Shown piece after piece: positions 19,165 through 46,165 of a DNA stretch of 64,000 bases (position 1 is its first letter; each line of letters opens with the position of its first letter). Source of the DNA: Escherichia coli (GTDB lineage Bacteria; Pseudomonadota; Gammaproteobacteria; Enterobacterales; Enterobacteriaceae); assembly GCF_003790525.1 (NCBI RefSeq), contig NZ_CP033635.1. One strand, 5' to 3'. The notes under the pieces are model-generated. The model was not told the DNA's origin, did no database searches, and saw only the letters and a program-made list of their open reading frames with translations. A program made the position numbers and the translations under genes.

Positions 19165-19379
19165 TACTCCTCCATAAAGATAGGCGCAAGCATTTAGTAA
19201 TAAACCATTAACATGCCGAGATCATACCCGATCATTGAAATGTAAACACTCCCCTAAGACGGCTGCTGGCATAATATTTTATGACATCAGCAATGCCCAC
19301 CTCTGGCACAGAGTGGACTGTCAGATTAGGCTTTACTCTGTGCCATAGATATGTAAGCCCACACTAGAGCTCATACAAC

Positions 19380-19907
19380 TTATTGCGGCATTTCCGGCCA
19401 TTCAGGATTTGCAGGATCCACACGACTGACCAGAACACTATAGCGTTCCCATGCCTCCAGTCGACTACGCTCCTCATCTGTTGCCATATTCAGCCTGACC
19501 GCGCGCTCCAGCGGCAAAATCACGGATTCAGCTTCGGAAAGCAAAGCTGCCTTATGTAATTCCGCCAGTTTCTGCTGTTCGTCTGCCGTATAAATCCGCT
19601 TAATCACGGCACCATCCTTAAACATCCATTTACCTGAGTCGTCAGCACGTCGGTTGGAGGTAATATCAGGAACCTCAACAACGCTAAAACCTTCAGGATT
19701 AAGCGTTGAAGCATCTCTGGTGATAGCGACAATAATATTATTTTCATCGTAAACAATCTTTATTGTGTCTGGCTGAAAGTTCTTCACTTCCTCATACCAG
19801 TTTTTTCCGTCCTCAGAGTAAAGCCAGATAACTCCGTGTTTCTTTGTTAACTCATACTGTTCCAGTGTTTTAGCGTTACCCGCTTTTATGTTCTTTAAGT
19901 GCATCAT
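19380..19907 (-). CDS. G: Tail fibre assembly protein G
   Basis: 175 aa, P2 gpG length and position. Confidence 0.85.
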
Positions 19908-19908
19908 A

Positions 19909-23724: not shown

Positions 23725-24356
23725 AGAGGTCCCCCGGTTGTGCCGCCGCTGTCGCCGGGGTGTTTATGGGTATGCAGTACCTTACCGTTTGATGAGAGCT
23801 CACCGCCGGTGTGTTCAATGTTGCCGCGCATCGTCCCGCCCTTCTGCACTTCCAGCGTGCCGGTAATCAGCCTGTTGGTGCAGACCACCTCCGGTGTGTC
23901 CAGGGTGATGCGGGTTGATGCTTTCACCATGACCACCGGCACCGTGGCAGTAACAGAATCAGAAGCCGTCACGCTGGCCGTTTTAACTCCGCTTACCGTG
24001 AGCGCGCTGGTTTCAGGTTCATACTCAATCACCGCCCCGTCAGGGAAACGGATATGCAGGGCATCCGCCGACGCAGACGGCGCGGGGTTATCGCCGGAAT
24101 AAATCCCCGGCAGAACGAACGCCGTGTCGAGTTCACCACCCACGGCCAGAATCAGCACCTGTTCCCCCACGGAAGGTGCCCACCATGTGCGCGAACGCCC
24201 GGCGCGATGGGTCAGCCACTGAAGCCAGTCGGTGCACATGCCGCCGGTCTGCACACGGCAGCGACCGGCATTAAGGTCGGTTTCGACGATAATGCCGGTG
24301 CGGATCATGTTGCGCAGTGCGCGCGCGAGTTCCTGAATATTTGCGAGAGTGTTCAT
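23721..24356 (-). CDS. V: Baseplate spike protein V
   Basis: 211 aa from MNTLANIQELARALRNMIRTGIIVETDLNAGRCRV...; P2 gpV length. Confidence 0.85.
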   Translation of the reverse strand: MNTLANIQELARALRNMIRTGIIVETDLNAGRCRVQTGGMCTDWLQWLTHRAGRSRTWWAPSVGEQVLILAVGGELDTAFVLPGIYSGDNPAPSASADALHIRFPDGAVIEYEPETSALTVSGVKTASVTASDSVTATVPVVMVKASTRITLDTPEVVCTNRLITGTLEVQKGGTMRGNIEHTGGELSSNGKVLHTHKHPGDSGGTTGGPL

Positions 24357-24439
24357 GCGTGTGAGATTGCACAATATATAAAAGTTATGCTATCTGGATT
24401 CATTTGTAGAACGACCATACAACATTCGAGGAGAGCGTA

Positions 24440-25225
24440 ATGTTCAGTGATAATGTGACTAATGCGTGGTGGTTTATCTCTTTGTATCTATTTTTATTAA
24501 TAGCATTAACATTTGTTACCTTTGGTAAAAGTAATCTTATGAGGTTTATTGCACATCATTTCAATCTTGAGTATTCAGACAGAAAGTTAAAAATGCTCGA
24601 CAAAAAATGGCGCGACATTCAACTATTTAAAATAATTAACGGAATCAATGTATCAGGCATCGAAGATGTGAGAATGATACAGCAGGGGCTGATTGATGGA
24701 AAACTAAAAACATCGTATTTTTTCCTTACTCGCTTCTGGGGTGACATAACAAAACCACCACACATAATTAAAACAACAATTGTAATTCTGGCCAGTATTA
24801 TTTATATTCTCTTCGCATGTTATATACACAATGAACAATCCGCTATAGTAAGGGATGCCATAGGTATACCATATAAAAATATGATGTACTATGTTTATAG
24901 TGACAAAGTTCTTTTATCCTTCAAAAATAAAACGGTTGAATTTAATAAAACTTATAGCCTTGCCGATTGCAAGAGTCTGCAAAACGTATTTATAAAAGAC
25001 ACACTTCCCGAGATCGCCTGCAATAAGCTCTTACAGCTAAACAAGGAGGACTCCGAATGGTTAAGTCAGGAGATTAAAGATAATAACAGCCACAGAAAAA
25101 CATTATTAATAATATCCCTAACCTATTTCATTTCAGGTCTGCTTATATTCCTGTCATATACAAAATTCCTTTACGCCAATAAGAAGGTTTTAGAATACAA
25201 AGCATCAAATAAAAACCACTCATAA
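24440..25225 (+). CDS. Hypothetical membrane protein at the orf30 position, opposite strand to the tail genes
   Basis: 261 aa, very AT-rich, about three predicted TM helices (WWFISLYLFLLIALTFVTF; TIVILASIIYILFACYI; LLIISLTYFISGLLIFLSY). Confidence 0.6.
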   Translation: MFSDNVTNAWWFISLYLFLLIALTFVTFGKSNLMRFIAHHFNLEYSDRKLKMLDKKWRDIQLFKIINGINVSGIEDVRMIQQGLIDGKLKTSYFFLTRFWGDITKPPHIIKTTIVILASIIYILFACYIHNEQSAIVRDAIGIPYKNMMYYVYSDKVLLSFKNKTVEFNKTYSLADCKSLQNVFIKDTLPEIACNKLLQLNKEDSEWLSQEIKDNNSHRKTLLIISLTYFISGLLIFLSYTKFLYANKKVLEYKASNKNHS

Positions 25226-31497: not shown

Positions 31498-31670
31498 TGT
31501 CAGGAGTCCTGAATAGTGATTAGAGGAGTCACATGTCGGCATCAGTTTCCCGACGATGCGCATCCTCCGCCATCAGTCCCGGATGGCTTATCACTGACAC
31601 AACAGCACCTTAGCGAATCGCGGGGCGCGACTCAGTAGCCTTGCCGTGTATTCATCACGGCGAGGTATTC

Positions 31671-33443
31671 ATGACCATCACCACAGACACCACTCTTTTA
31701 CACGACCCGCGTCGTCAGGCGGCGCTGCTGTACTGGCAGGGGTTTTCCGTGCCGCAGATTGCCGCCATGTTGCAGATGAAACGCCCGACGGTGCAGAGCT
31801 GGAAACAGCGCGACGGCTGGGACAGCGTTGCCCCCATCAGCCGTGTCGAAATGAGTCTGGAAGCGCGGCTGACCCAGCTCATCATCAAACCGCAGAAAAC
31901 CGGCGGTGACTTCAAGGAAATTGACCTGCTGGGACGCCAGATTGAACGACTGGCACGGGTCAACCGCTACAGTCAGACCGGCAACGAGGCAGACCTTAAT
32001 CCGAACATCGCTAACCGCAACAAAGGCGGGCGGCGCAAACCGAAAAAGAATTTTTTCAGCGACGAAGCCATCGAAAAGCTGGAGCAGATTTTCTTTGAGC
32101 AGTCTTTCGACTATCAGTTGCACTGGTATCGCGCCGGGCTTGAGCACCGCATCCGCGATATCCTGAAATCCCGCCAGATTGGCGCAACGTTTTATTTTTC
32201 CCGCGAGGCGCTGCTGCGTGCCCTGAAAACCGGTCATAACCAGATTTTTCTGTCGGCCAGTAAAACGCAGGCGTATGTGTTCCGCGAATACATCATCGCC
32301 TTTGCCCGGCTGGTTGACGTTGACCTGACCGGTGACCCGATTGTCCTGGGCAATAACGGCGCAAAACTGATTTTTCTCGGCACCAACTCCAACACCGCGC
32401 AGAGCCATAACGGCGACCTGTACGTCGACGAGATTTTCTGGATCCCGAATTTTCAGGTACTGCGTAAGGTGGCATCAGGTATGGCCTCACAGAGTCACCT
32501 GCGCTCGACCTATTTCTCCACCCCGTCCACGCTGGCGCACGACGCCTACCCGTTCTGGTCGGGTGAACTGTTTAACCGGGGACGCGCCAGCGCCGCCGAA
32601 CGCGTGGAAATCGACGTCAGTCATAACGCCCTTGCCGGTGGGCTTCTCTGTGCGGACGGCCAGTGGCGGCAGATTGTCACCATTGAGGACGCCCTGAAAG
32701 GCGGCTGCACGCTGTTCGACATTGAGCAGCTCAAACGCGAAAACAGCGCCGACGATTTTAAAAACCTGTTCATGTGTGAATTTGTTGACGACAAGGCGTC
32801 GGTATTCCCGTTCGAGGAGCTGCAACGCTGCATGGTCGACACGCTGGAAGAATGGGAAGACTATGCGCCGTTTGCCGCCAATCCGTTCGGCTCCCGCCCG
32901 GTATGGATTGGTTACGACCCGTCACACCGTGGCGACAGCGCCGGATGCGTGGTGCTGGCACCGCCGGTGGTGGCCGGAGGTAAATTCAGAATACTTGAGC
33001 GTCACCAGTGGAAAGGCATGGACTTTGCCACTCAGGCGGAATCCATCCGCAAACTCACCGAAAAATACAACGTCGAATACATCGGAATTGATGCCACCGG
33101 CCTCGGTGTCGGCGTGTTCCAGCTCGTGCGCTCGTTCTATCCCGCCGCGCGCGATATCCGCTACACGCCGGAAATGAAAACCGCAATGGTGCTCAAGGCA
33201 AAAGACGTCATCCGCCGTGGCTGTCTGGAATATGACGTCAGCGCCACCGACATCACCAGCTCGTTCATGGCTATCCGCAAGACCATGACCAGCAGCGGAC
33301 GCAGCGCCACCTATGAGGCCAGCCGTAGCGAGGAAGCCAGCCACGCCGACCTCGCCTGGGCGACCATGCACGCCCTGTTAAATGAGCCACTCACCGCCGG
33401 TATCAGCACCCCGCTGACATCCACCATTCTGGAGTTTTACTGA
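31671..33443 (+). CDS. P: Terminase large (ATPase) subunit P
   Basis: 590 aa from ATG 31671 (MTITTDTTLLHDPRRQAALLYWQGFSVPQIAAM...); ORF-track start at 31641 is a TTG extension. Confidence 0.85.
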   Translation: MTITTDTTLLHDPRRQAALLYWQGFSVPQIAAMLQMKRPTVQSWKQRDGWDSVAPISRVEMSLEARLTQLIIKPQKTGGDFKEIDLLGRQIERLARVNRYSQTGNEADLNPNIANRNKGGRRKPKKNFFSDEAIEKLEQIFFEQSFDYQLHWYRAGLEHRIRDILKSRQIGATFYFSREALLRALKTGHNQIFLSASKTQAYVFREYIIAFARLVDVDLTGDPIVLGNNGAKLIFLGTNSNTAQSHNGDLYVDEIFWIPNFQVLRKVASGMASQSHLRSTYFSTPSTLAHDAYPFWSGELFNRGRASAAERVEIDVSHNALAGGLLCADGQWRQIVTIEDALKGGCTLFDIEQLKRENSADDFKNLFMCEFVDDKASVFPFEELQRCMVDTLEEWEDYAPFAANPFGSRPVWIGYDPSHRGDSAGCVVLAPPVVAGGKFRILERHQWKGMDFATQAESIRKLTEKYNVEYIGIDATGLGVGVFQLVRSFYPAARDIRYTPEMKTAMVLKAKDVIRRGCLEYDVSATDITSSFMAIRKTMTSSGRSATYEASRSEEASHADLAWATMHALLNEPLTAGISTPLTSTILEFY

Positions 33444-34477
33444 TGAGCAAGAAAAAAGGGAAAACACCGCAACCTGCGGCAAAAAAAATGACCGCCAGCG
33501 CCCCGAAAATGGAGGCATTCACCTTTGGTGAGCCGGTGCCGGTACTCGACCGCCGTGACATTCTGGATTACGTCGAGTGCATCAGTAACGGCAGATGGTA
33601 TGAGCCACCAGTCAGCTTTACCGGTCTGGCAAAAAGCCTGCGTGCTGCCGTGCATCACAGCTCACCGATTTACGTCAAACGTAACATTCTGGCCTCAACG
33701 TTTATCCCACACCCGTGGCTTTCTCAGCAGGATTTCAGCCGCTTTGTGCTGGATTTTCTGGTATTCGGTAATGCGTTTCTGGAAAAGCGTTACAGCACCA
33801 CCGGTAAGGTCATCAGACTGGAAACCTCACCGGCAAAATATACCCGCCGTGGCGTGGAGGAGGATGTTTACTGGTGGGTGCCGTCCTTCAACGAGCCGAC
33901 ACCTTTCGCGCCCGGCTCCGTGTTTCACCTGCTGGAGCCGGATATTAATCAGGAGCTGTACGGTCTGCCGGAATATCTCAGCGCCCTTAACTCTGCCTGG
34001 CTGAATGAGTCGGCCACGCTGTTCCGCCGCAAGTATTACGAAAACGGCGCTCATGCCGGATATATCATGTACGTCACTGATGCCGTGCAGGATCGCAACG
34101 ATATCGAAATGCTTCGCGAAAACATGGTGAAGTCGAAAGGCCGCAACAACTTTAAAAACCTGTTTCTCTATGCCCCGCAGGGGAAAGCTGACGGCATTAA
34201 AATTATCCCGCTCAGTGAAGTGGCAACGAAGGACGATTTTTTTAATATCAAAAAAGCCAGCGCCGCTGACCTGCTGGACGCGCACCGCATCCCCTTTCAG
34301 TTGATGGGCGGCAAGCCGGAGAACGTCGGGTCGCTGGGTGATATTGAGAAAGTAGCAAAGGTCTTTGTCCGCAATGAGCTTATCCCGTTACAGGACAGGA
34401 TCCGCGAGATAAACGGCTGGCTCGGTCAGGAGGTCATCCGATTTAAAAACTACTCACTGGACACTGACAACGGCTGA
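33443..34477 (+). CDS. Q: Portal protein Q
   Basis: 344 aa; start overlaps the P stop (TGATG); P2 gpQ length. Confidence 0.9.
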   Translation: MSKKKGKTPQPAAKKMTASAPKMEAFTFGEPVPVLDRRDILDYVECISNGRWYEPPVSFTGLAKSLRAAVHHSSPIYVKRNILASTFIPHPWLSQQDFSRFVLDFLVFGNAFLEKRYSTTGKVIRLETSPAKYTRRGVEEDVYWWVPSFNEPTPFAPGSVFHLLEPDINQELYGLPEYLSALNSAWLNESATLFRRKYYENGAHAGYIMYVTDAVQDRNDIEMLRENMVKSKGRNNFKNLFLYAPQGKADGIKIIPLSEVATKDDFFNIKKASAADLLDAHRIPFQLMGGKPENVGSLGDIEKVAKVFVRNELIPLQDRIREINGWLGQEVIRFKNYSLDTDNG

Positions 34478-34646: not shown

Positions 34647-34665
34647 GTGCTTTCCCCGCCTCGCC
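34647..34665 (-). other. cos site (19-nt cohesive end)
   Basis: Reverse complement of gtgctttccccgcctcgcc is GGCGAGGCGGGGAAAGCAC, matching the P2 cohesive-end sequence as recalled; lies between Q and the cargo locus as in P2. Confidence 0.7.
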
Positions 34666-34892
34666 CGCCCGCTTCATGGGTCGGTTTTGATGCAATTCCA
34701 AAAGCCGTCCAAACTCTCTTAGGCTAAATGTCCAACGAGAAAATAGTTCTTTGAATGTGAATGCATTTTAATGCAGAGTTATGCCCAGCATTTTTGTACA
34801 CTTCGATGTATCAAATGCGCTGCAAACGATCAAATATGGATGTTTTATCAAGCATCCCCCAAAAGATATTTACATCATCCCATGAGGTTAAG

Positions 34893-35966
34893 ATGGATAA
34901 CAAAATCGTAGAAATTGAGACAAATAAGCTTGATTTTGACCCTAAAAACCCACGTTTCTTTCGTCTCAATGATGCCAGTAACGCTGCAACAGTCATTGAG
35001 GAAATGTTAGATGACGAAAGTGTCCACGATCTAATGCTATCAATCGGTCAGCAAGGTTACTTTCCTGGAGAACCTTTATTGGCAGTAAAAAGCAATGGAA
35101 ACTACATCGTGGTTGAGGGAAACAGACGCTTAGCTGCTGTAAAGTTGCTCAATGGAGATCTGCTTCCTCCAAAAAGAAAACTTAAAGGTGTGCAAGAAAT
35201 CATTGATGATACTACCAATAAACCTAAGAAGCTTCCCTGCATCATTTATGAAAACCGAGAGGATGTACTGAGATATATCGGTTATCGTCATATAACTGGG
35301 GTCAAAGAATGGGACTCATTATCTAAAGCCAAATACCTTAAAGAGTTATGTGATACTTTTTATTCACATGAGCCTAAAGAGATAGTATTAAAAAATCTGG
35401 CTCGTGAGATTGGGAGTAAACCACATTATGTTGCAACACTTCTCACTGCACTGAACTTATATGAAGTCGCGCATGACCATGAGTTTTTTAATTTACCCAT
35501 GAAGGCTTCTGACGTGGAATTTTCATATATAACCACAGCTTTGGGATATTCAAAAATCACAAACTGGTTAGGTCTACAGGATAAAAAGGATTTTTTAGAC
35601 CCAAATTTAAATGAAGAAAACCTTAAGCGTTTATTCTCTTGGTTTTTTGTGCCTGACCAACAAGGTAGAACCATCATCGGTGAGTCTCGAAGAATAAAAG
35701 ATATTGCAGCAGTGGTTGAGAAACCCGAAGCAATTGAAATTCTCATGAAAAGTTCAAACTTGGATGAAGCATATCTATATACCAGCGGAGAAAGAGAAGC
35801 ATTAGATAAAGCACTAAACGCAGCTAGTGTTAAATTAAGAGTAGTTTGGGATATGCTACTTAAAGCTAAAGAATTAACATTAGAGCATGAAGAGGCTGCA
35901 TCTGAAATTTTTGAGATGTCAAAAAATATTAGAAATCAGATCAGAAGCAAAAGGGAGGATGATTGA
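34893..35966 (+). CDS. ParB/Srx-like N-terminal domain protein (cargo gene 1 at the old/tin position)
   Basis: 357 aa from ATG 34893 (RBS gagg upstream); ParB-box-like motifs LDFDPKNPRF and IVVEGNRRLAAVKLL; AT-rich. Confidence 0.7.
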   Translation: MDNKIVEIETNKLDFDPKNPRFFRLNDASNAATVIEEMLDDESVHDLMLSIGQQGYFPGEPLLAVKSNGNYIVVEGNRRLAAVKLLNGDLLPPKRKLKGVQEIIDDTTNKPKKLPCIIYENREDVLRYIGYRHITGVKEWDSLSKAKYLKELCDTFYSHEPKEIVLKNLAREIGSKPHYVATLLTALNLYEVAHDHEFFNLPMKASDVEFSYITTALGYSKITNWLGLQDKKDFLDPNLNEENLKRLFSWFFVPDQQGRTIIGESRRIKDIAAVVEKPEAIEILMKSSNLDEAYLYTSGEREALDKALNAASVKLRVVWDMLLKAKELTLEHEEAASEIFEMSKNIRNQIRSKREDD

Positions 35967-35970
35967 GATT

Positions 35971-36996
35971 ATGATTACAAATCTTGATTCAATGCCTTCT
36001 AATGAGCCTTATTTATGGGCTGATTATATTGAGATATTGGCCTTAACTAATATCGACAGGTCATTCAGTCGAGGAGACCTATATAGCACACTGCAAGCTC
36101 AACCCGAAGCAGTACTAGCTGAAACAGATGAAGCAGAAGAAGAGGGCGTTTATGATGTTGATGATGAAAATGATACGCCTGTACGCAAGAGAACAAAACG
36201 AAGTGTTAGTCGAGCATATACTGACAGAAAGTGGAGCTATGCGATAGGCTTCATACGACAACGCATTGATTTATTTGGGGATAGTTACCCTTTTACTTTA
36301 TCAGAAGACAACGATACTGTAGAGTTACGTGATATATCAGAAAAGCCACTGGAACATTTAGAAAGACTATATTTAGCTTTACTAATCTGTGCTAACATAA
36401 AATATGTCAACATAATGAGCAGAAGAGAGATAACGCGCAGTTTTGAACTAATTAGTTTACCTATTTTTGAAAGCCTAATGCCTAGCGGTAGCATAATAAA
36501 AGCATGCTGGGCTTCTGGTGGTCAAGCGGCCCCTTACACTGGAACTCTATATAATAAATTTAAGAGTATTGCTTCCGATATCCGTTGCACAGCGAACTTC
36601 AAAGAACGAGATTTCAGTCGAGGAAATAGTGGTGACGGAGGCCTTGACATAATTGCCTGGCATCCAATGGGAGATCAACGAGATGCCATCCCTATTTCTT
36701 TTGTTCAGTGTGGCTGTTCTCAAGAAGAGTGGGAAGCGAAGCAGCTTGAGGCCTCACCTGCGATGCTCTACAGTAAATTCCCCGTAGCTCACCGATGGGC
36801 AACTTATTATTTCTTACCTCAAGATCTACGATGGATAGATGGTGAGTGGGCGCATAAAAATAAGTTAGGCGATGCTATTTTTGTTGATCGCCTAAGATTA
36901 ATCAATTTAACCAGAGCATCTGATAATATTGATCACAGTCAAAATATTAGCTATCTAGATATCATCCTTGATCCTTCCAGCGCGATCGCTGCTTAA
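35971..36996 (+). CDS. Hypothetical protein, possible PD-(D/E)xK-type nuclease (cargo gene 2)
   Basis: 341 aa; starts 4 nt after gene 1 (alternative ATG 35959 overlaps its stop); contains GDGGLDIIAW ... ISFVQCGCSQEEWEAK, resembling an Mrr-type catalytic core but lacking the canonical QCK lysine. Confidence 0.6.
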   Translation: MITNLDSMPSNEPYLWADYIEILALTNIDRSFSRGDLYSTLQAQPEAVLAETDEAEEEGVYDVDDENDTPVRKRTKRSVSRAYTDRKWSYAIGFIRQRIDLFGDSYPFTLSEDNDTVELRDISEKPLEHLERLYLALLICANIKYVNIMSRREITRSFELISLPIFESLMPSGSIIKACWASGGQAAPYTGTLYNKFKSIASDIRCTANFKERDFSRGNSGDGGLDIIAWHPMGDQRDAIPISFVQCGCSQEEWEAKQLEASPAMLYSKFPVAHRWATYYFLPQDLRWIDGEWAHKNKLGDAIFVDRLRLINLTRASDNIDHSQNISYLDIILDPSSAIAA

Positions 36997-37931
36997 TCCC
37001 ATAAATCTGGAAGGTTTCTAGCAACCGCCTCAAACAATGGAGGCGGTACTGCATTACCTACCACAGTATATTTCATATTAATAGAAGCCCGTTCAGTTTC
37101 TGGGAAAATTAAATCCCCAAAACCTTGTAAAATAGCAGCCTCTCGATAGCTAAACCTACGAGCTGGTGCATCCGAAGTAAATTGCCACTTATCAGGTCCC
37201 AATTTTTCTAATGTTGGACTTATTGGATGTAGAGGCATATGTCTAGGATTTGCAACAATTGTTTTAGATATCTGATCCCAATCTTGCCTACGGTTTCGCG
37301 ATAGATAATACCAATGAAAATCGGCGTCATAAAACTCGCCAACAGGCCAAACAGGCATATGCCCAATAGCATCACGAATTGTGGAATATGGTGTCAAACC
37401 ATCACCATGTGTTGGTTTTGGAAATTTGTATGTAATACCGTAGTCCTTTCGTATTCCTACGATAAAGATTCGCTTCCTATCTTGGGATACCCCATAATGG
37501 GACGCATTCAGAATTTGCGAGCTTACTGTATAACCTGCTTCTTCGAAAACTTTGAATTGATCCTTTAATAAATGCTCAAAGTTACGCCTTACCATACCAG
37601 AGACATTCTCTACAATGAATGCTTTTGGCTTAATTTTACTCAAAGCACGGGCAAACTCTAAATATAGTGTATTAATCTTTCTATCTGCCTTCCTTGCCCC
37701 ACCTTGACTAAATCCTTGGCAAGGATAGCATCCGATGAGCAACTCAGCAGAAGGGAACGACTGGAGCCCTGAGATATCGCCCAAAATGTAGTCAGTTTCA
37801 GGATGGTTTTCTAAGTAAACGTCCCTTGCGTAAGGCAAAATATCATTTGCCATAAGCACATTGAAACCTGCGTTCAAAACTCCCGCATCAGAACCACCAC
37901 ATCCAGAAAAAAGTGAAACTACAGTTGGCAT
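36993..37931 (-). CDS. DNA cytosine-5 methyltransferase, HaeIII/HhaI-type small m5C MTase (cargo gene 3)
   Basis: 312 aa with motif I FSGCGG, motif IV PCQGFS, motif VI ENV, motif VIII QDRKR, motif X GNAVPPPL, plus YYLSRNRRQDW resembling the M.HaeIII variable region; convergent with gene 2 (4-bp overlap). Confidence 0.85.
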   Translation of the reverse strand: MPTVVSLFSGCGGSDAGVLNAGFNVLMANDILPYARDVYLENHPETDYILGDISGLQSFPSAELLIGCYPCQGFSQGGARKADRKINTLYLEFARALSKIKPKAFIVENVSGMVRRNFEHLLKDQFKVFEEAGYTVSSQILNASHYGVSQDRKRIFIVGIRKDYGITYKFPKPTHGDGLTPYSTIRDAIGHMPVWPVGEFYDADFHWYYLSRNRRQDWDQISKTIVANPRHMPLHPISPTLEKLGPDKWQFTSDAPARRFSYREAAILQGFGDLIFPETERASINMKYTVVGNAVPPPLFEAVARNLPDLWD

Positions 37932-38173
37932 TGACCCCTCCTAAAAACCGACCGCGTATTATAGCGAAACACCCCGTTGGGAAAAGCTAGATTTTGCCAA
38001 GTCTTGATATTCTCACGTTTTAGTAGTTGTGGCCATCTTTAACGAGAAAAAGATAAAATTGACTTCTCATTAATTTTCAATAGGTTTAATTGTAAGCTCA
38101 AACTAACGCCTCGCGACACTCGTTATTCAACCCCGCCAGCCCTGAAAACAAGTTTCACGACTGGCGGCGTTCT

Positions 38174-38379: not shown

Positions 38380-38832
38380 TTATCCAAGCCACCCGTTTTG
38401 CTGTGCACGCTCCATCTGTTCATCTGAATAGTTCCATGCTCCATCCGTGGCAACCATTGCCCCGCCAGACATCCCCGTCTCTGGTTCATACATAACAGCA
38501 AGGCCGAGCTGATGCATAATTTCATGATTAATTCTGAATACCAGGCCACGCTCACTAAGTTCTTTCCAGTTCACAATCTCATATGCGCCTGTATTAAGCA
38601 GCTCAATACTTAGCAAGACATAATCTTCCAGCCAGTCTGACAGGTCAGTAACATCTGTTATCCGGGCTTCAACATTTCGCCCCGTATACACACCCTGCAC
38701 CCATTCATACAAAATCAACGTGTCCCCGCGCTCATAATTACGGTCATTTTTCCGGAACTCTGCACGTTTCTTTCCTTCCAGCACAAGGTCGAAATATTTT
38801 GCGTGCAGCTTTACCTCGTGAATTTTTGCCAT
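38380..38832 (-). CDS. ASCH/DUF3850-like protein at the orf91 position
   Basis: 150 aa from MAKIHEVKLHAKYFDLVLEGKKRAEFRKNDRNYERGDTLILYEW...; start overlaps the A stop by one nucleotide. Confidence 0.6.
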   Translation of the reverse strand: MAKIHEVKLHAKYFDLVLEGKKRAEFRKNDRNYERGDTLILYEWVQGVYTGRNVEARITDVTDLSDWLEDYVLLSIELLNTGAYEIVNWKELSERGLVFRINHEIMHQLGLAVMYEPETGMSGGAMVATDGAWNYSDEQMERAQQNGWLG

Positions 38833-41117
38833 TATGTCCACTCCATTACTGTTGAGAATCCCGGCCACTCATCAGCGACCGGATACGTGAATTTTTTCCC
38901 GTCATAATTTACGGTCGCGCCACGCGCCAGCGCCTCAAGCTCCCATCGCTGCGGCCTGATACCGTTCTGAGCAAGGTCAACGCGGATACGGGTAATTTGC
39001 GTTCGTTCCGACCGGGTCAGTCTGGCCGATGGCGCTATTTCATGTGGTTTTAACGGGCTTCCGTTTCTCTGCTGACGATTTGGTGTTCTCAGTTCGTGTT
39101 TTAATGCACCTCTGAGCGCCCTCACGACCTCTGGCTCATTCCATTCGATAACACCGTCATCAACCAGATTAAGCACGGCTGCGGCATGTTCATAAGGTGT
39201 GGGAGCCGGTAACGAAGTATCACTGCCGGTGAGCTTTCCACAGTTATTGACAGGACTCCGAGGCGCGGCGATGCCGCTTTTTAAAGTCAAAGGCTCAACG
39301 ACCGGAACTTTCGGCACAATGCGCCAGTCCGTCGTTCTGGTGATATGAATATGACGCGCGCCGAGATGCGGCGCGTAAATACCGACCACTCTCTCGACTT
39401 CTTCCTCGTACTCGTTAACGTCACTCGACGGGCTACGGGCAACCCTGACAGTCTGACAATCGCGCGGGACATTTGCCCCACCCTGCGCGCTGATATACAA
39501 CGCAAAATCACCACTGTCTGCGGCAGCGCGAGCAGCCTCGACGCGTTCGTCAAACTCATCAGCAATACTGACGCCGCGAGGTAATTTGCGTAGTTCACGG
39601 TAAGCCCCCATTGTCGGTAGGCCAACCGTTTTAAATTGCGGAATGCGCCACGTTGACGCCCATGCGGTAACAGCCGCGGCAGTGTCTTTCAGCGGCCTGC
39701 CGGTATCGTTATCGAGCTGACCATCCAGTGCATAGCCGTCGATGTTTTTTGAAATGTATTTCGCGATATACCCCGCAGCACCGCCCCGATTAAGGTGTTT
39801 TGCCTGAAAACGGTTTCGCGCGGCTCCTCTTTCGTCGCCATCCTCTTTGAGCGCATAGCGACGCATGATTTCGATAATCTGGTTACGCTGGCGCGAATTA
39901 CAAAAAAGCATCATATGCCAGTGCGGCGTTCCGTCGTGGTGTGGCTCGACGACACGCAAACCGTAGACCTGTAAATCATTATCCTTGAATGCCGTGCGCA
40001 TCAGGCTCCAGATACGGCAGAGATAACGCTGCGCATCCTTTGGATTAAATGCCTCATCGTTCCAGCCGTGATTAAGCTGCACGGTTTTACTTTCGCCTTT
40101 TCCTACCTGACGTGTCGGGTGATACTTTGACGGCGCGGTCAGCGTGATAAACATCCCCACATCACCCTCTGCAGCGGCGTAACGCTCAATACCGGCAATG
40201 GTGTTCATCAGCTCCATCCGGCGAATTTCAGGATTAGAAATACTGCCCATCACCTTACTGATAAGGTCGATGCGCTCGCCGGTTTCCCTGTTTTCAAGGT
40301 CACACGATTTAAGAAATTCCAGATTTGCCTGGCGGCGCGCACGCACATCACGAATGGCATGTTTACTGGCATAAGGTGAACGGTCTTTATTGACCTCCCC
40401 GACAGCAATCAGTAACGCCTCATGCCAGCGCATACGCTGGCCTTTAAGCTGTCTAATCCACCACTCATCGTTAAACAGGCGGGCAATGGCAGAATATGCC
40501 TGCCTCGTGGTCATCTGCCCTTTACGGTATTTTCTCCAGTACAGCGGGGAAATATTGAAAGCACGTGCAGCGCCAGCAACATGACCATACAGGTGAGCCT
40601 GCGCCTCATCCGTAAACAGCGATTCTTTTTCGCCATGGGCATCCACCCAGGCATCGCAGAGTTCCTCATACATCATGAAAAGCTGCGATGAGATACGGGC
40701 GGCAAACTTTTTCAGCTCCTTGTCATTCATTCCCGGCAGGCGCGCATAGTGGTCACGCTCTGCCAGAAACAGCAACGACGCGTCGGTGTTCATTTCATGG
40801 CGCTGATTCACACGCTCAATGCGCGGCCATAAACGACGCTGAAAAGTGGATGTGAGGAAATAAAACCCGTGCACCGGGCTTTTATTGCGCCGGATGTAGT
40901 CATAGCGTGAAGTAAACAGCGAGCGCAAAAAGTAAGGCAGGCGGTTAATCGTGGATAAAACACCTTGCACCTGACGCATCTCATCACGTGTAAGGGGTCT
41001 TTCGCGCCCGACGGCCTCGCGTGGCGCGTTCCATGCATAAGCACCGGTAAACATCTTACCGGTGCCTGCGGCAAATGCTGACGGAGGGACAAAACGCCCG
41101 GAGGCTTTAACGGCCAT
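38832..41117 (-). CDS. A: Replication initiation protein A (rolling-circle nicking endonuclease)
   Basis: 761 aa from MAVKASGRFVPPSAFAAGTGKMF...; P2 gpA length. Confidence 0.85.
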   Translation of the reverse strand: MAVKASGRFVPPSAFAAGTGKMFTGAYAWNAPREAVGRERPLTRDEMRQVQGVLSTINRLPYFLRSLFTSRYDYIRRNKSPVHGFYFLTSTFQRRLWPRIERVNQRHEMNTDASLLFLAERDHYARLPGMNDKELKKFAARISSQLFMMYEELCDAWVDAHGEKESLFTDEAQAHLYGHVAGAARAFNISPLYWRKYRKGQMTTRQAYSAIARLFNDEWWIRQLKGQRMRWHEALLIAVGEVNKDRSPYASKHAIRDVRARRQANLEFLKSCDLENRETGERIDLISKVMGSISNPEIRRMELMNTIAGIERYAAAEGDVGMFITLTAPSKYHPTRQVGKGESKTVQLNHGWNDEAFNPKDAQRYLCRIWSLMRTAFKDNDLQVYGLRVVEPHHDGTPHWHMMLFCNSRQRNQIIEIMRRYALKEDGDERGAARNRFQAKHLNRGGAAGYIAKYISKNIDGYALDGQLDNDTGRPLKDTAAAVTAWASTWRIPQFKTVGLPTMGAYRELRKLPRGVSIADEFDERVEAARAAADSGDFALYISAQGGANVPRDCQTVRVARSPSSDVNEYEEEVERVVGIYAPHLGARHIHITRTTDWRIVPKVPVVEPLTLKSGIAAPRSPVNNCGKLTGSDTSLPAPTPYEHAAAVLNLVDDGVIEWNEPEVVRALRGALKHELRTPNRQQRNGSPLKPHEIAPSARLTRSERTQITRIRVDLAQNGIRPQRWELEALARGATVNYDGKKFTYPVADEWPGFSTVMEWT

Positions 41118-41382
41118 ATGAGCCAAAAGCCTCTGAACAACGCCTGCTGAGTTGCTCAACCTGCGCGTTTAAATCAGCAAAAGACTTTGCGCTTCCGGTC
41201 AGAATATCGTGATGCATCAGGCCGGAAACGAGCTGGCTTAATTTCGGGTAATAACCAACCACCGCCAGCCATTCCTGACCGGCGTTTTTACCGCTTTCAG
41301 CTCTCTTTTTCTCGTGGAGAATAAACTGAAAGCTGTCACTGGTAACGACATAACGTTCGCCAATTTCAATACGAATACTCAT
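41107..41382 (-). CDS. P2 orf83-like small protein
   Basis: 91 aa ORF in the conserved early-operon position, tightly packed with neighbours. Confidence 0.6.
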   Translation of the reverse strand: MSIRIEIGERYVVTSDSFQFILHEKKRAESGKNAGQEWLAVVGYYPKLSQLVSGLMHHDILTGSAKSFADLNAQVEQLSRRCSEAFGSYGR

Positions 41383-41603
41383 GCCGTTCTCCGGTAATGT
41401 TTGTTTTTTGCTTCAAAGACTGACTGACAGGAAACACAACGCGTGGCTGACGGATAAGCCGCACGACGGGCAGCAGGTATTGGCGCGTCACACTCTTCGC
41501 AAACCAGCGCAGAAGCACCGCAATGTTTTACCCTTGCCGCGTTAATCTGGCGCTCCAGTAATTCAGCCTGTTGTTCCTGAATAAAATCTACGTTGTCCGG
41601 CAT
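41379..41603 (-). CDS. TraR/DksA-family zinc-finger protein (P2 orf82-like)
   Basis: 74 aa with four-Cys arrangement CEECDAPIP...CVSCQ. Confidence 0.65.
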   Translation of the reverse strand: MPDNVDFIQEQQAELLERQINAARVKHCGASALVCEECDAPIPAARRAAYPSATRCVSCQSVFEAKNKHYRRTA

Positions 41604-41908
41604 TACCAGTTCCTTTTGTCGTTAAGGTTTTTAAATTCATCAGCGCAATAGCTGGCGATTTCTGTCGTTAATTTCGTCAGTTCATCCACGGAGGAGATTT
41701 GCTTGTGAAACACAGCGCGTTTAACAAGTAAATTGACCACATCAGACAGGAGGTTTAATTCGTTCTGATAAATCGCGATAACAGACTCAGTTATTTCGCG
41801 TTTTTCTTTATCAAGACCAAGTTGAATAAGAGACAAATCGCCATTTTTCATAACGGCGATTTTTAGGGCGTTATTCAGTAATACAACTGAACGAGAACAG
41901 GACATCAA
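41603..41908 (-). CDS. P2 orf81-like small protein
   Basis: 101 aa ORF, positional. Confidence 0.55.
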
Positions 41909-42129
41909 AGCACCTCCCCGCGAGACAATCCGATATTGTGAAATTTTTCCGACTCCTGACTGAGCAGCTCGACTATCTCCACGCGGGATAACTCCGCCTT
42001 TGTGATGTGGCGAATCATGGCGTCAAGATGAGAAGAAAAGCGCGTCGCTGCGTCGGCCTGTGCTTCGGTTCTGGCCTGTTGCAGCAGTAATGCGTATTTA
42101 CCGCACTGATTTTCAGAAACTGTATGCAT
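41905..42129 (-). CDS. P2 orf80-like small protein
   Basis: 74 aa ORF, positional. Confidence 0.5.
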
Positions 42130-42192
42130 GACTTTCTCCAGGCAAAAAGAAGCCCCGCACGATTAAGTGCGTTAAAAACTCTGGTTAATTAC

Positions 42193-42693
42193 TTAATGCA
42201 GATATTGCTCTGGTTTTACCGACGTCAGAATTGTCGGTGCATACTCAAACAGGCTGAATAATTCACGTAATGCACGGAATAAAGCATCACGCCAGTAACA
42301 TGATTCTTCATTAATTCGCCAGTATGGCTGGTTGAATTCTTTTTCAGTCAGTCGTGCGTGCATAAATAAAGTGCGACGCTGACTGACTGTTAAAAAACTA
42401 ATATATGCATACTCACTTGCGCCAACCTGACGGCGTTTTGAGAATGCGCCACGCAATTCATCAATTGCACAAACCAGTCGTTCACGTTCGACGTCGTTCA
42501 TTTCTTCAAAACGCATCGTTGCGTGACGCTGTTTTAACTGTGCATGAAAGCAAACCGTTAGCCGTTCGCGCTCCATCATCTGATTATAATAATCACATGT
42601 ATCCTGCCAGCGAGGGACGGCAAGATGCTTGCCAATTATCCGGCGCATAGCTGCTGGCTGTTTTTCAACGAGATTAAGCGTCATCACTGTCAT
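42193..42693 (-). CDS. B: Replication protein B (helicase loader)
   Basis: 166 aa, P2 gpB length and position. Confidence 0.8.
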   Translation of the reverse strand: MTVMTLNLVEKQPAAMRRIIGKHLAVPRWQDTCDYYNQMMERERLTVCFHAQLKQRHATMRFEEMNDVERERLVCAIDELRGAFSKRRQVGASEYAYISFLTVSQRRTLFMHARLTEKEFNQPYWRINEESCYWRDALFRALRELFSLFEYAPTILTSVKPEQYLH

Positions 42694-42887
42694 TTCCAGC
42701 CCCTCCGGCTTTTCAGAAAGGTCAGAGCCTTTTTTAACGGACTCTGTTTTTTGGTGCGGATAATGATTCCCTTACGCCCCTTACCGTGGGTGATGGTGAA
42801 GTCAATCGCCCTGGGGCTTTCGTTACGCAGTAACTGAGCAATACAACGCGGTTCACTCATAATCACAACCCCATCCACAAAAGCCAT
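42690..42887 (-). CDS. P2 orf78-like small protein
   Basis: 65 aa ORF between cox and B. Confidence 0.5.
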   Translation of the reverse strand: MAFVDGVVIMSEPRCIAQLLRNESPRAIDFTITHGKGRKGIIIRTKKQSPLKKALTFLKSRRGWK

Positions 42888-43135
42888 GCATCACGCTGTT
42901 CAACTGGTCGGTTATAAAACGCCTCTCGTACAGCGCGATTAAACTCTGGAATGAAAACCCACTTCTCACCGACACGAGCGTTCGGCTTACTTGGATCACG
43001 AAGCTCAATAACTGGCAACTTATTCTCTTTTACCATCTTGACTACAGCCGTTTCTGGCTTACCAAGTAACTCTGCAAACTTAACCGTATGTACCGCATCA
43101 ATCGGGTACTGAATCACATAGTCATTGACTTCCAT
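42863..43135 (-). CDS. cox: Cox-like excisionase / early-promoter repressor
   Basis: 90 aa; first gene of the early operon, divergent from C; P2 Cox is about 91 aa. Confidence 0.7.
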   Translation of the reverse strand: MEVNDYVIQYPIDAVHTVKFAELLGKPETAVVKMVKENKLPVIELRDPSKPNARVGEKWVFIPEFNRAVREAFYNRPVEQRDAWLLWMGL

Positions 43136-43287
43136 TGATTAGCCCTTTTTGCTTTCGTGTTACCCTTATTAGATCCAGTCCCTTCTAGGTCGCACCTGTC
43201 CTTTCTAGGGACTGGCTAACACACTCAAAAGGTCACCAATACACAACCTTTTGACGGGAATATAAGTCACCAATAGGTTACTGTCAA
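43136..43287. promoter_or_regulatory. Immunity switch region (divergent C and cox promoters with operator repeats)
   Basis: Intergenic region between divergent C and cox; direct repeats ccagtcccttctagg (43175..43189) and cctgtcctttctaggg (43195..43210). Confidence 0.6.
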
Positions 43288-43581
43288 ATGCAGACATTCG
43301 AAAAACTGAAAGCGATTAGGAAAGCAGAAGGCTTAACACAGGCGAAATTCAGCGAAATTAGCGGGATAGCTCTAGGAACAGTCAAAAATTACGAAAGTGG
43401 GCATAAAGACCCTGGTCTCAGCATCGTTATGCGAGTCACAAATACGCCTTTATTTAAAAAATATACGCTCTGGTTAATGACTGGTGATACGTCACCACAA
43501 GCTGGTCAGATCGCGCCGGCTCTCGCACACATTGGGCAAAAACCAACAGAATCAGACCACTCCGAAAAACAGACTGGTTAA
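43288..43581 (+). CDS. C: Immunity repressor C (HTH)
   Basis: 97 aa, MQTFEKLKAIRKAEGLTQAKFSEISGIALGTVKNYESG...; HTH_XRE-like. Confidence 0.8.
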   Translation: MQTFEKLKAIRKAEGLTQAKFSEISGIALGTVKNYESGHKDPGLSIVMRVTNTPLFKKYTLWLMTGDTSPQAGQIAPALAHIGQKPTESDHSEKQTG

Positions 43582-43650
43582 CACTCTATAAACATTACAT
43601 TTTCACCATTTGTTACCAAGATGGTGAATACAGCGTCAGAGGGCTTTCTT

Positions 43651-44631
43651 ATGTCAATTAAGAAGCTCGATGATGGACGCTATGAAGTGGACATTAGACC
43701 TCGCGGTCGCGACGGAAAACGCATCCGCAGGAAATTTGAAAGAAAAGCTGAGGCTGTAGCATTTGAGCGATACACAATCGCCTACGCCAGCCAGAAAGAA
43801 TGGGCAGGTCAGCGAGCAGATCGCAGAACTTTGAGTGAGTTGCTGAACATCTGGTGGAAATATCACGGGCAAAACCACGAGCATGGAACAAAAGAGTTTA
43901 ATCATCTGCTCAAAACCATCAGCGGCATAGGTGATATACCAGTGAGCCGGATGAGCAAAAGAGCTTTGATGGATTATCGTTCCATGCGACTACGTGATGG
44001 TATCAGTGCCGCAACGATAAACCGTGACATGTACCGATTATCCGGCATGTTCACAAAATTAATTCAATTGGATGAATTTTCCGGGCAACACCCAATTCAC
44101 GGACTGCCGCCACTGGCGGAGGCCAACCCTGAAATGACGTTCCTGGAAAAAGCAGAAATCGAAAAACTGTTAAATGTTTTGGATGGTGATGACTTACTTG
44201 TCGCACTTTTATGTCTGAGCACTGGAGGAAGATGGACGGAAGTTGCCACGCTAAAACCAGCACAGATTACAAATTGCAGGGTTACCTTCCTGAAAACCAA
44301 AAACGGTAAAAAGCGAACCGTGCCGATTTCTGAGGAACTGGAGAAAAAAGTTAAAGAGGAGGCCAGCGCTAAATTATTCAAAGTTGATTATGAGAAGTTT
44401 TGCGGGATTTTACGCAGAGTGAAGCCAGATATACCACCCAATCAGGCAACCCACATCCTGCGGCATACATTCGCAAGCCATTTCATGATGAATGGGGGCA
44501 ATATAATCGCACTGCAACAGATTCTGGGACATGCGAGCATTCAGCAGACGATGGCCTATGCGCACCTTGCGCCTGACTACCTGCAAAATGCCGTCGCGCT
44601 GAATCCTCTAAAAGGCGGAGTGACGTTATAA
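43651..44631 (+). CDS. int: Tyrosine integrase
   Basis: 326 aa from MSIKKLDDGRYEVDIRPRGRDGKRIRRKF...; C-terminal catalytic region ...HILRHTFASHFMMNGGNIIALQQILGHASIQQTMAYAHL; ORF-track start at 43621 is a 10-codon extension. Confidence 0.85.
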   Translation: MSIKKLDDGRYEVDIRPRGRDGKRIRRKFERKAEAVAFERYTIAYASQKEWAGQRADRRTLSELLNIWWKYHGQNHEHGTKEFNHLLKTISGIGDIPVSRMSKRALMDYRSMRLRDGISAATINRDMYRLSGMFTKLIQLDEFSGQHPIHGLPPLAEANPEMTFLEKAEIEKLLNVLDGDDLLVALLCLSTGGRWTEVATLKPAQITNCRVTFLKTKNGKKRTVPISEELEKKVKEEASAKLFKVDYEKFCGILRRVKPDIPPNQATHILRHTFASHFMMNGGNIIALQQILGHASIQQTMAYAHLAPDYLQNAVALNPLKGGVTL

Positions 44632-44645
44632 ATTTCCCTTCTGAG

Positions 44646-44664
44646 TGTCCACATAGTGTCCACA
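44646..44664. promoter_or_regulatory. Putative integrase arm-type binding sites, right arm
   Basis: tgtccacatagtgtccaca, matching the left-arm copy at 9841..9860. Confidence 0.5.
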
Positions 44665-44746
44665 CTCTCAGAACTTTGTAGCCCTTCCAGTCCCTTATAG
44701 GTTTTCTTAAGTTACTGTTTTCTTACGGAAACCGATGTAAGTGATT

Positions 44747-44793
44747 GATAAAAAAAACCCCCACATCATGTGGGGGAAGACAGGGATGGTGTC
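44747..44793. repeat. attR core, identical to attL; carries the cpxP/CpxQ terminator hairpin
   Basis: 47-bp identity with 9746..9792; contains cccccacat-c-atgtggggg next to an A/T run. Confidence 0.85.
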
Positions 44794-44812
44794 TATGGCA
44801 AGGAAAACAGGG
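44750..44812 (-). ncRNA. cpxQ: CpxQ sRNA (processed cpxP 3'UTR) with intrinsic terminator
   Basis: Minus-strand sequence ...uuuuccuugccauagacaccaucccugucuucccccacaugaugugggggUUUUUUUU immediately downstream of the cpxP stop; matches CpxQ as recalled. The 5' end is approximate. Confidence 0.6.
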
Positions 44813-44816
44813 TTTA

Positions 44817-45317
44817 CTACTGGGAACGTGAGTTGCTACTACTCAATAGCTTCAACGATGAACTTTTTTGCCATTGCGTCACGTCGCGCAACTGCTCCAT
44901 TCGTTGTTGATGTTTCTCGTTTAAAACCGCTTGCTGCTCCGGCGTTAACAGGCGATACATTTGGTTGCGGACTTTTGCCATCTCAACCTGACGAGCAATT
45001 TGCTCATTCGCCATTTTTTCTGCCTGTGCGCGCACAGCGTTTTCATCAAAATTTTCTGCGGTGACAAGGCGATGCATTGTCTCCAGTTCGCTAACATTAA
45101 CAGGAGGCTGTTCGTGCCGGGCCTGTTGCATAAGATCTCGCATCTGCTGACGCTGATGTTCGGTTAAACTTATGCCGTCGAACATATGGCTCTGCGTACT
45201 GCGCTGCGTAAGTTCTTCACCCGGATGCCAGTTATCGCCTGAACCGACTTCAGCAGCGTGGCTTAATGAACTGACTGCCAGCGTTGAGGCCATGACGGCA
45301 GCGGTAACTATGCGCAT
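44817..45317 (-). CDS. cpxP: Periplasmic stress adaptor/inhibitor CpxP
   Basis: 166 aa, [34 protein letters not shown]...; LTXXQ motifs. Confidence 0.9.
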
Positions 45318-45396
45318 CATTTGCTCCCAAAATCTTTCTGTCGCGATTCAACGATAGAGAGTTTACGATTCAGGCTGCAAACATGCGTCAGGGGGT

Positions 45397-45411
45397 GTAA
45401 AACAACGTAAA
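45397..45411. promoter_or_regulatory. CpxR box in the divergent cpxP-cpxRA promoter region
   Basis: Perfect GTAAA-N5-GTAAA (gtaaaacaacgtaaa). Confidence 0.7.
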
Positions 45412-45466
45412 GTCATGGATTAGCGACGTCTGATGACGTAATTTCTGCCTCGGAGGTATTTAAACA

Positions 45467-46165
45467 ATGAATAAAATCCTGTTAGTTGATGATGACCGAG
45501 AGCTGACTTCCCTATTAAAGGAGCTGCTCGAGATGGAAGGCTTCAACGTGATTGTTGCCCACGATGGGGAACAGGCGCTTGATCTTCTGGACGACAGCAT
45601 TGATTTACTTTTGCTTGATGTAATGATGCCGAAGAAAAATGGTATCGACACATTAAAAGCACTTCGCCAGACACACCAGACGCCTGTCATTATGTTGACG
45701 GCGCGCGGCAGTGAACTTGATCGCGTTCTCGGCCTTGAGCTGGGCGCAGATGACTATCTCCCGAAACCGTTTAATGATCGTGAGCTGGTGGCACGTATTC
45801 GCGCGATCCTGCGCCGTTCGCACTGGAGCGAGCAACAGCAAAACAACGACAACGGTTCACCGACACTGGAAGTTGATGCCTTAGTGCTGAATCCAGGCCG
45901 TCAGGAAGCCAGCTTCGACGGGCAAACGCTGGAGTTAACCGGCACTGAGTTTACCCTGCTCTATTTGCTGGCACAGCATCTGGGTCAGGTGGTTTCCCGT
46001 GAGCATTTAAGCCAGGAAGTGCTGGGCAAACGCCTGACGCCTTTCGACCGCGCTATTGATATGCACATTTCCAACCTGCGTCGTAAACTGCCGGATCGTA
46101 AAGATGGTCATCCGTGGTTTAAAACCTTGCGTGGTCGCGGCTATCTGATGGTTTCTGCTTCATGA
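45467..46165 (+). CDS. cpxR: Envelope-stress response regulator (OmpR family)
   Basis: 232 aa, MNKILLVDDDRELTSLLKELLEMEGFNV... Confidence 0.95.
   Translation: MNKILLVDDDRELTSLLKELLEMEGFNVIVAHDGEQALDLLDDSIDLLLLDVMMPKKNGIDTLKALRQTHQTPVIMLTARGSELDRVLGLELGADDYLPKPFNDRELVARIRAILRRSHWSEQQQNNDNGSPTLEVDALVLNPGRQEASFDGQTLELTGTEFTLLYLLAQHLGQVVSREHLSQEVLGKRLTPFDRAIDMHISNLRRKLPDRKDGHPWFKTLRGRGYLMVSAS

Follow-up and report, generated by a model that had tools for sequence, protein, structure and literature searches.

What does a ParB-like protein do in a prophage that has no ParA beside it? The question is raised by a stretch of 64,000 nucleotides of Escherichia coli DNA (RefSeq assembly GCF_003790525.1, contig NZ_CP033635.1), a P2-like prophage; this whole stretch is called the window below. 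Positions 34893-35966 of its plus strand encode a ParB/KorB-like protein of 357 residues (WP_000368931), 100% identical to orf98 of phage WPhi. A preliminary description of the locus, made from the sequence alone, had presented the gene as stand-alone cargo. We found instead that it lies in an operon with a partner gene that the description left unmentioned and whose product has a predicted restriction endonuclease fold, that the two genes co-diverge and are swapped together, and that the pair travels with the gene of a C5 DNA cytosine methyltransferase. The ParB-like protein, the nuclease-fold partner and the M.HaeIII-like methyltransferase form a conserved mobile trio. On balance, we read the ParB-like protein as the ParB-fold subunit of a three-gene, restriction-modification (R-M)-like defence module, which the TO hotspot of P2 and WPhi would carry as lysogenic-conversion cargo.

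The ParB-like gene belongs to a conserved mobile trio

The partner gene (WPhi orf96; 35959-36996, plus strand) overlaps or abuts the stop of the ParB-like gene with its start, and the two genes are translationally coupled in one operon. The methyltransferase gene (WPhi mth; 36993-37931, minus strand) is convergent with the partner gene, the two stops overlapping by 4 nucleotides. This cassette is identical to orf98-orf96-mth of WPhi, whose record lists the same gene order, and E. coli SMS-3-5, with about 100 further complete genomes, matches the segment 34400-38900 at 100% identity.

The trio was recovered in all 19 unique intact loci, that is, those with enough sequence, which come from Gamma- and Betaproteobacteria and whose ParB-like relatives range from 100% down to 32% identity. 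Three gene orders occur; in one of them the ParB gene begins 22 nucleotides past the methyltransferase gene, with no intergenic promoter. The trio is found in P2-like, Mu/lambdoid-like and Pseudomonas Citexvirus phages (the last at locus L042), in a Tn7-like neighbourhood and in plain chromosome. P2-like prophages of Citrobacter, Raoultella and Intestinirhabdus carry it in the same hotspot as the window (L005-L008, L017, L032), while a different phage has it in the order methyltransferase, ParB, nuclease (L014-L016). It adjoins Tn7-like genes in Dechloromonas (L009), lies near TIR-NACHT genes at L012, with the methyltransferase gene divergent and upstream, and is found near a transposase and a vsr remnant on the chromosome of Methylomonas sp. 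DH-1 (L002). A scan of GTDB species genomes recovered the trio at 14 of 18 loci; two of the other four were at a contig edge and two were visibly decayed. A profile built on the partner recognises the neighbouring open reading frame in every locus, with E-values from 1e-37 to 1e-152. The link to DNA modification that had been proposed for the ParB-like gene is real and proves much stronger than the sequence alone could show: the C5 methyltransferase accompanies it in every intact locus.

At the Methylomonas locus (11437-12845), the transposase and a 58-residue fragment of Vsr (very-short-patch repair) adjoin the methyltransferase gene, consistent with a former methylase-vsr pairing.

The ParB-like protein has a predicted ParB/Srx fold and a conserved helical half

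The reading frame 34893-35966 is real, as previously described: its ATG at 34893 is backed by a GAGG ribosome-binding site, by the RefSeq call and by the N-termini of 34 homologues. The longest open reading frame (34761-35966, plus strand) gives a 401-residue reading, whose ATG at 34761 falls within a motif of the promoter region (see below). Start annotation varies for both genes of the operon: the WPhi GenBank record has 401 and 369 residues (34761-35966 and 35887-36996), RefSeq has 357 and 345 residues (partner start at 35959), and homologue alignment gives 357 and 341 residues (partner start at ATG 35971, favoured by the homologues).

Both ParB-box motifs quoted in the preliminary description are present and essentially invariant in the family alignment. 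The motif FDPxNPRF corresponds to F15, D16, N19, P20, R21 and F22, and the motif VEGNRRLAAVKLLN to E75, G76, N77, R78, R79 and L80, where the family reads EGNRRLAA. Among 35 sequences, down to 53% identity, neither the arginine pair of Box II nor the NPR motif near the N-terminus varies, and relatives at 32-43% identity still keep both. HMMER aligned E75-G76-N77-R78-R79 to the GERR of B. subtilis (Spo0J/ParB) and H. pylori ParB. Pfam ParB_N alone matches weakly (E=0.067). The PADLOC PD-Lambda-5_A models match the N-domain, with a best E-value of 2.5e-24, and the AlphaFold2 (AF2) model of the protein, with a pLDDT (predicted local distance difference test) score of 85.8, is matched by Foldseek to KorB, CDP/CTPγS-bound ParB and Noc at 1.8e-5 to 3e-4, over about 250 columns that comprise the N-domain and the helix-turn-helix (HTH) region. 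Since PADLOC, the HMMER alignment to ParB and the AF2/Foldseek comparison agree, the predicted ParB/Srx fold is firm despite the weak Pfam match.

The remainder of the protein sets it apart. The Box III region reads YRHITG, not ENxQR. Residues ~140-357 are all-helical in the AF2 model, the last two helices (300-324 and 330-355) being long; this half is strongly conserved (for example W250, F252, T260, E264 and R266), and Foldseek found no specific structural match for it. A Pfam scan of the protein detected neither an HTH nor a dimerisation domain, and no methyltransferase domain; nor does the protein have a DGQQR-type DUF262 motif or an HNH/DUF1524 nuclease. The family is large, with 1,624 matches in a 90%-clustered database and at least 551 representatives at 50% identity (E<=1e-30), nearly all of 355-390 residues. 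Which nucleoside triphosphate (NTP) a ParB-fold protein prefers can reportedly be told neither from its sequence nor with AlphaFold3 (PMC12704722). A 715-position PADLOC candidate, PDC-M38A, on which a literature search found nothing, matches residues 41-327 and leaves the partner unmatched, so that it is no Rosetta-stone fusion of the two proteins.

The partner is predicted to resemble restriction endonucleases in fold

The partner has no significant match in Pfam, NCBIfam, PADLOC (E<0.01) or PDB sequences; PHROGs lists its family as unknown, and 203 of 203 homologues are annotated 'hypothetical'. Fold comparison matched it to N.BspD6I, SdaI, LlaBIII, AspBHI, NgoMIV, Bse634I, Cfr10I and AgeI. 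Because the sequence searches gave nothing significant, it is on this comparison that we base the prediction of an N-terminal winged helix-turn-helix (wHTH) and a C-terminal PD-(D/E)xK restriction endonuclease fold. The family has a conserved core, GDGGxD230-X19-Q250-C-G, followed by K261 and E264, and the invariant residues of the putative active-site region are D226, D230, D239, Q250, K261 and E264. The spacing from D to Q resembles that of the MspJI motif, D-X20-QxK.

Partners of the WPhi type have, at residues ~47-85 (window 36090-36210), a strongly acidic insertion of about 35 residues, after which comes a basic stretch (EAVLAETDEAEEEGVYDVDDENDTPVRKRTKRS). The insertion is missing from most homologues, and other lineages have different acidic inserts in the same place; the segment could be autoinhibitory or a DNA mimic.

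The methyltransferase is related to M.HaeIII

The product of the third gene matches TIGR00675 at 1.8e-54 (185.6 bits against a cutoff of 100.65) and the PADLOC DruM/MTase_II models, and carries the full set of C5 methyltransferase motifs, as in type II R-M systems. It aligns over its full length to M.HaeIII (1.6e-48), target-recognition region included, and has arginines at the positions equivalent to M.HaeIII R225, R227 and R243, which we take to be the residues that read GGCC in the M.HaeIII structure. A GGCC-like specificity is, on these residues, a lead rather than a result. The observed/expected ratio of GGCC is 0.62-0.63 in the whole window and in the prophage backbone alike, and is uninformative on the specificity of the enzyme.

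The ParB-like and partner genes co-diverge and are exchanged as one block

More than 200 contigs carry both the ParB-like gene and the partner gene. We compared the three proteins pairwise over the 19 unique loci. The ParB-like protein (mean identity 0.51) and the partner (0.44) diverge in step, with a correlation of 0.95 between them; the methyltransferase is better conserved (0.70) and correlates less well with either (0.56 with the ParB-like protein and 0.58 with the partner). In R-M systems, restriction genes typically diverge or are replaced much faster than methyltransferases.

An exchange of this kind is found within E. coli. The window-type cassette is present in 103 of 5,426 complete genomes. 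In a further 36 genomes (O145 and others) a second allele occupies the hotspot: the methyltransferase gene is present at 90-95% DNA identity, and megablast matched neither of its two companions. The module is thus found in about 2-2.6% of the genomes (103 + 36 of 5,426). O145 strain RM8988-C1 (L039, 2899-5935) carries in the same hotspot a cassette whose ParB-like protein, partner and methyltransferase are 32%, 25% and 97.8% identical to those of the window. By blastn against this prophage, DNA homology stops sharply at 34703, just past cos, and is found again from 36994 onward, where the methyltransferase gene has its stop codon. Between these points there is only distant similarity of the proteins; the promoter region, the ParB-like gene and the nuclease gene (34703-36994, plus strand) were thus exchanged as one block. 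The methyltransferase beside them being unchanged, both ParB-nuclease pairs must tolerate the same methylation pattern; two such pairs with one methyltransferase offer a natural test of specificity and of how anti-restriction may be escaped.

Decayed copies lose the nuclease side or the whole module

Four E. coli cassettes are disrupted by insertion sequences (IS). In three of the four, IS5 has entered the nuclease gene, at no fewer than two different sites; in the fourth, IS2 separates the ParB start from the promoter motif; the methyltransferase gene is hit in none. At a Dechloromonas locus (L028), the ParB gene is truncated at its 5' end and the nuclease gene is frameshifted, the methyltransferase gene being intact. 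Yersinia phage L-413C (L041, 207-1199) carries an O145-type ParB gene, 97.7% identical up to residue 309, where a single deletion of 2.57 kb took the ParB C-terminus, the nuclease gene and the methyltransferase gene together and fused the remainder into orf91. Disruptions thus strike the nuclease, its promoter side or the module in its entirety; in no copy is the methyltransferase the only gene affected. The logic of a toxic nuclease and a protective methylase allows this pattern. Another Yersinia phage, HQ103, has a partial ParB-like homologue (34% identity over 83% of the query).

The cassette occupies the TO hotspot and probably shares its promoter architecture

The left edge of the hotspot is marked at 34647-34665 by a P2-type cos, whose 19-nucleotide cohesive-end sequence gtgctttccccgcctcgcc has an exact counterpart in the cosR annotated for phage P2; the cassette therefore lies at the very end of the genome in virion DNA. 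We place the ParB-like gene in the TO region because it is between Q/cos and A. In P2 this region carries the defence genes old and tin (PMC6823313), and it is a recognised hotspot for anti-phage systems (PMC9122126, PMC9519451). G+C content falls from about 0.56 to 0.37-0.41 over 35001-38000, as expected for cargo.

Upstream of the cassette, at 34761-34775 (plus strand), lies an ATGCA-N5-ATGCA motif, ATGCATTTTAATGCA, found once in the window where 0.02 matches are expected, in what we presume to be the cargo promoter region, equivalent to that of old and tin in P2. Each ParB cassette that sits in a P2-type hotspot, the 32%-identical allele included, has a single copy of the motif upstream, as ATGCATTTTAATGCA or ATGCAAAATCATGCA, and P2 itself (L043, about 4960-4985, minus strand) has ATGCAATCTCATGCA...TTGAATGCA directly upstream of the mapped old-tin transcript starts. 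Since the same motif serves 32%-identical ParB alleles and the unrelated old-tin cargo, it is not a ParB-specific operator; we read it as a shared promoter architecture of the hotspot, perhaps a conserved promoter or regulatory element for any cargo placed there. This architecture suggests expression of the cassette of the lysogenic-conversion type, as annotated for P2 old and tin. Inspection of the non-P2 loci revealed no common upstream motif, and simple promoter and terminator scans performed no better than on shuffled sequence.

A subunit, a controller, a nuclease or a partition protein?

A role in partition, which the preliminary description had already thought unlikely, is effectively refuted, and we give it next to no weight. 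A genuine centromere-binding ParB would maintain or position the prophage or phage DNA, and the architecture of the protein, an N-domain plus HTH like that of ParB, Noc and KorB, would suit it. However, a scan that covered the window and related loci found no deviant Walker-A (KGGxGK[ST]) open reading frame, in agreement with the earlier statement that no parA is adjacent, and no ParA-type Pfam family is listed in the gene tables of related loci. The motif that defines ParA binding, [LFI]G[KR]G[LFI] (PMC12704722), is absent from the 357-residue sequence on direct reading, and the score with TIGR00180 (parB_part), 30.5 bits, is below the cutoff of 58.45. Moreover, P2-type phages integrate, the gene occupies a non-essential hotspot for defence cargo, and it is strictly linked to a methyltransferase gene and a nuclease-fold gene.

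We lean instead towards the ParB-fold protein being a subunit of the R-M-like module, because of its location in the hotspot that holds tin and old in P2, the predicted folds, the linkage of the trio, the decay pattern and the precedents for ParB-fold proteins in defence: ParB-fold (DUF262) NTPase modules sense DNA and regulate nucleases in GmrSD, SspE and Menshen (PMC12065111, PMC12373910, PMC13251355). In the mechanism that we propose, the methyltransferase would mark the DNA of host and prophage, with GGCC-like sequences as its probable targets. The ParB-like protein would be a dimer built like ParB, KorB and Noc, with an NTP-binding N-domain, an HTH and a helical C-terminal domain; it would bind DNA, with nucleotide binding as the switch, and once switched would recruit or license the partner nuclease to cut unmethylated incoming DNA. 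It would thereby play a part comparable to that of the NTPase subunits in LlaJI/McrBC-type enzymes and of the DUF262 modules in GmrSD and SspE. The exact role of the protein in the module, as clamp or sensor or as KorB-like controller, we infer. A more specific version, in which it is a nucleotide-gated DNA clamp, the nucleotide possibly being cytidine triphosphate (CTP), that is loaded at unmethylated recognition sites, or anywhere on DNA, and then slides and licenses the partner nuclease, seems to us unlikely as it stands. If true, it would mean that long-range communication and the gating of self from non-self are achieved by a ParB-type switch, not by an ATP motor or a GTP-driven McrB ring, and it would give a defined immune role to the ParB-CTPase fold in its canonical (non-DUF262) architecture.

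Several observations weigh against a role as subunit. Neither the correlation of 0.95 nor the exchange of the two genes as a unit proves a physical complex, since operon linkage alone would yield both, as it does in pairs of C-protein and R-genes; for the same reason they do not separate a subunit from a controller. The 19 loci share ancestry and hence are not independent samples, and the counts of insertions and deletions are small, IS5 having target preferences besides. The canonical lysine of (D/E/Q)xK is Gly or Ala in all partner relatives seen, so that nuclease activity would need a relocated lysine, presumably K261. Finally, the best Foldseek match of the ParB-like protein is KorB, a transcriptional repressor, and its gene, upstream of the nuclease gene and overlapping it, is exactly where R-M controller (C) genes sit.

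These last points belong to the main rival, which we consider rather improbable: that the protein controls an otherwise ordinary R-M system of type II, as a DNA-binding and possibly NTP-gated repressor or activator comparable with KorB or DndB, and times or limits the expression of the nuclease relative to the methyltransferase, the wHTH-nuclease being the whole restriction enzyme. The match to KorB includes its operator-binding HTH; the partner has a predicted DNA-binding wHTH of its own next to its catalytic domain, like SdaI; and one ParB-fold protein, DndB, regulates a modification system negatively (PMC12839542). Against this rival, the sole conserved upstream motif is shared with the promoter of P2 old, whose cargo is unrelated, and stays the same for 32%-identical alleles, so that it is no co-varying operator; the non-P2 loci show no common operator, and the gene order that leaves 22 nucleotides after the methyltransferase gene has no promoter there to control. 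A protein of 357 residues, with an invariant NTP-pocket motif and a conserved helical half of 200 residues, also far exceeds what known controllers need. Still less probable, in our judgement, is that the ParB-like protein itself cuts or nicks DNA, as a 'ParB-like nuclease' comparable with Osa or RK2 ParB, with the partner a catalytically dead recognition or sensor subunit. The family-wide replacement of the QxK lysine in the partner is what this would predict, and nicking activity has been reported for members of the ParB/Srx superfamily (cited within PMC12839542). Yet the acidic and Gln/Lys/Glu residues of the partner are invariant, which fits an active variant site, and it is the partner gene that IS elements hit, as expected for the costly component; L-413C, moreover, keeps most of the ParB gene without a methyltransferase, though this copy ends after residue 309.

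The trio differs from the known systems that it resembles

Held against classical type IIP R-M, as represented by HaeIII, the trio has a methyltransferase alignable to M.HaeIII over its full length and convergent with a gene of predicted PD-(D/E)xK fold. It differs in that a third gene, larger, better conserved and of ParB fold, is obligatory and is coupled to the nuclease gene, and in that the nuclease motif has no canonical lysine. A methyltransferase and an adjacent restriction endonuclease-fold gene are thus both there, as in type II R-M, but two components do not suffice to describe the system, the ParB-fold gene being present in all the unique intact loci.

LlaJI and BsuMI combine a C5 methyltransferase with a restriction half made of an NTPase and a nuclease. 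The likeness of the trio to these and to McrBC-like systems is that of mobile defence cargo with a C5 methyltransferase and a two-gene restriction part, of NTPase-type fold plus PD-(D/E)xK nuclease; the difference is that the NTP-binding fold is here ParB/Srx, not the AAA+ of McrB, and that dependence on NTP is here presumed. Searches with PADLOC and NCBIfam revealed no sequence or profile similarity of the trio proteins to McrB or McrC.

The ParB/Srx nucleotide-binding domain, a helical DNA-binding domain and a nuclease effector are also found together in GmrSD/BrxU, SspE and Menshen NsnA (PMC12065111, PMC12373910, PMC13251355). Those proteins, however, are of the DUF262 branch (DGQQR), have HNH/DUF1524 or other effectors that are often fused, and attack modified DNA or sense phosphorothioate. 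By contrast, the ParB-like protein has a canonical GxRR box and structural matches to ParB, KorB and Noc instead of to DUF262 proteins, its predicted PD-(D/E)xK partner is separate, and it comes with its own protective methyltransferase. PD-lambda-5 is likewise cargo of P2-type prophages that combines a ParB N-domain with DNA methylation (Vassallo et al. 2022, PMC9519451), but only residues 1-151 of our protein match, over the first ~160 positions of PD-Lambda-5_A models that are 430-590 positions long, the rest of which we infer to be methyltransferase from the labelling of PD-lambda-5 in that paper. In the trio, the methyltransferase is a separate C5 enzyme, the ParB-like protein has a helical C-terminal half of its own, and the partner, having no PADLOC match at all, gave no sign of being a homologue of gene B. 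We reject membership of PD-lambda-5, Menshen or GmrSD, the generic N-domain being all that is common. With the CTP-gated clamps KorB, Noc and chromosomal ParB, the protein shares an N-domain plus HTH, the Box II arginines and the N-terminal NPR motif; it differs from them in the Box III region, in a C-terminal half unrelated by sequence, and in its genomic partners, which are a nuclease and a methyltransferase, with no ParA or KorA.

A search of the open-access literature returned no functional description of the trio, of its accessions or of WPhi orf96/orf98, and the main texts of Rousset 2022 and of a 2026 preprint on P2/P4 hotspots do not mention the ParB or this methyltransferase. The trio looks like an undescribed R-M variant with an obligatory ParB-fold component. 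Neither the partner nor the trio as a system is represented by a model in PADLOC-DB v2.0.0, so that prophages carrying the module may be counted as free of this defence. Mobile elements encode many orphan ParB-fold proteins, for the most part of unknown function (PMC12704722). Here, the fixed pair of partners points to a function that can be assayed, restriction of unmethylated DNA. Should the ParB-like protein be needed for cleavage, it would be a new kind of NTP-switch subunit for R-M, and ParB-type switching would gain a simple read-out in plaque or transformation assays.

Neighbouring genes and base composition

The packaging and capsid genes of P2 type lie upstream of the cassette, with the terminase at 31641-33443 and the portal at 33443-34477, and the replication gene A lies downstream (38832-41159). 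Between the cassette and A, two genes off, is a homologue of P2 orf91 that belongs to the phage backbone and encodes a DUF3850/ASCH protein (38380-38868, minus strand). Fusions of the ParB fold with DUF3850 are common among phages according to a recent survey (PMC12704722). The ParB-like and DUF3850 genes are separate in the window, and the Citrobacter versions of the locus have no DUF3850 gene; their proximity is, for these two reasons, probably a coincidence. Other islands of low G+C (0.39-0.44) are found at 18001-21000, 24001-25000 and 58001-60000, in or near the prophage, and may be other cargo loci. The prophage backbone (12000-34700 plus 38900-46000) is strongly depleted in GATC, with 24 sites observed against 115 expected (a ratio of 0.21); over the whole window the ratio is 0.55.

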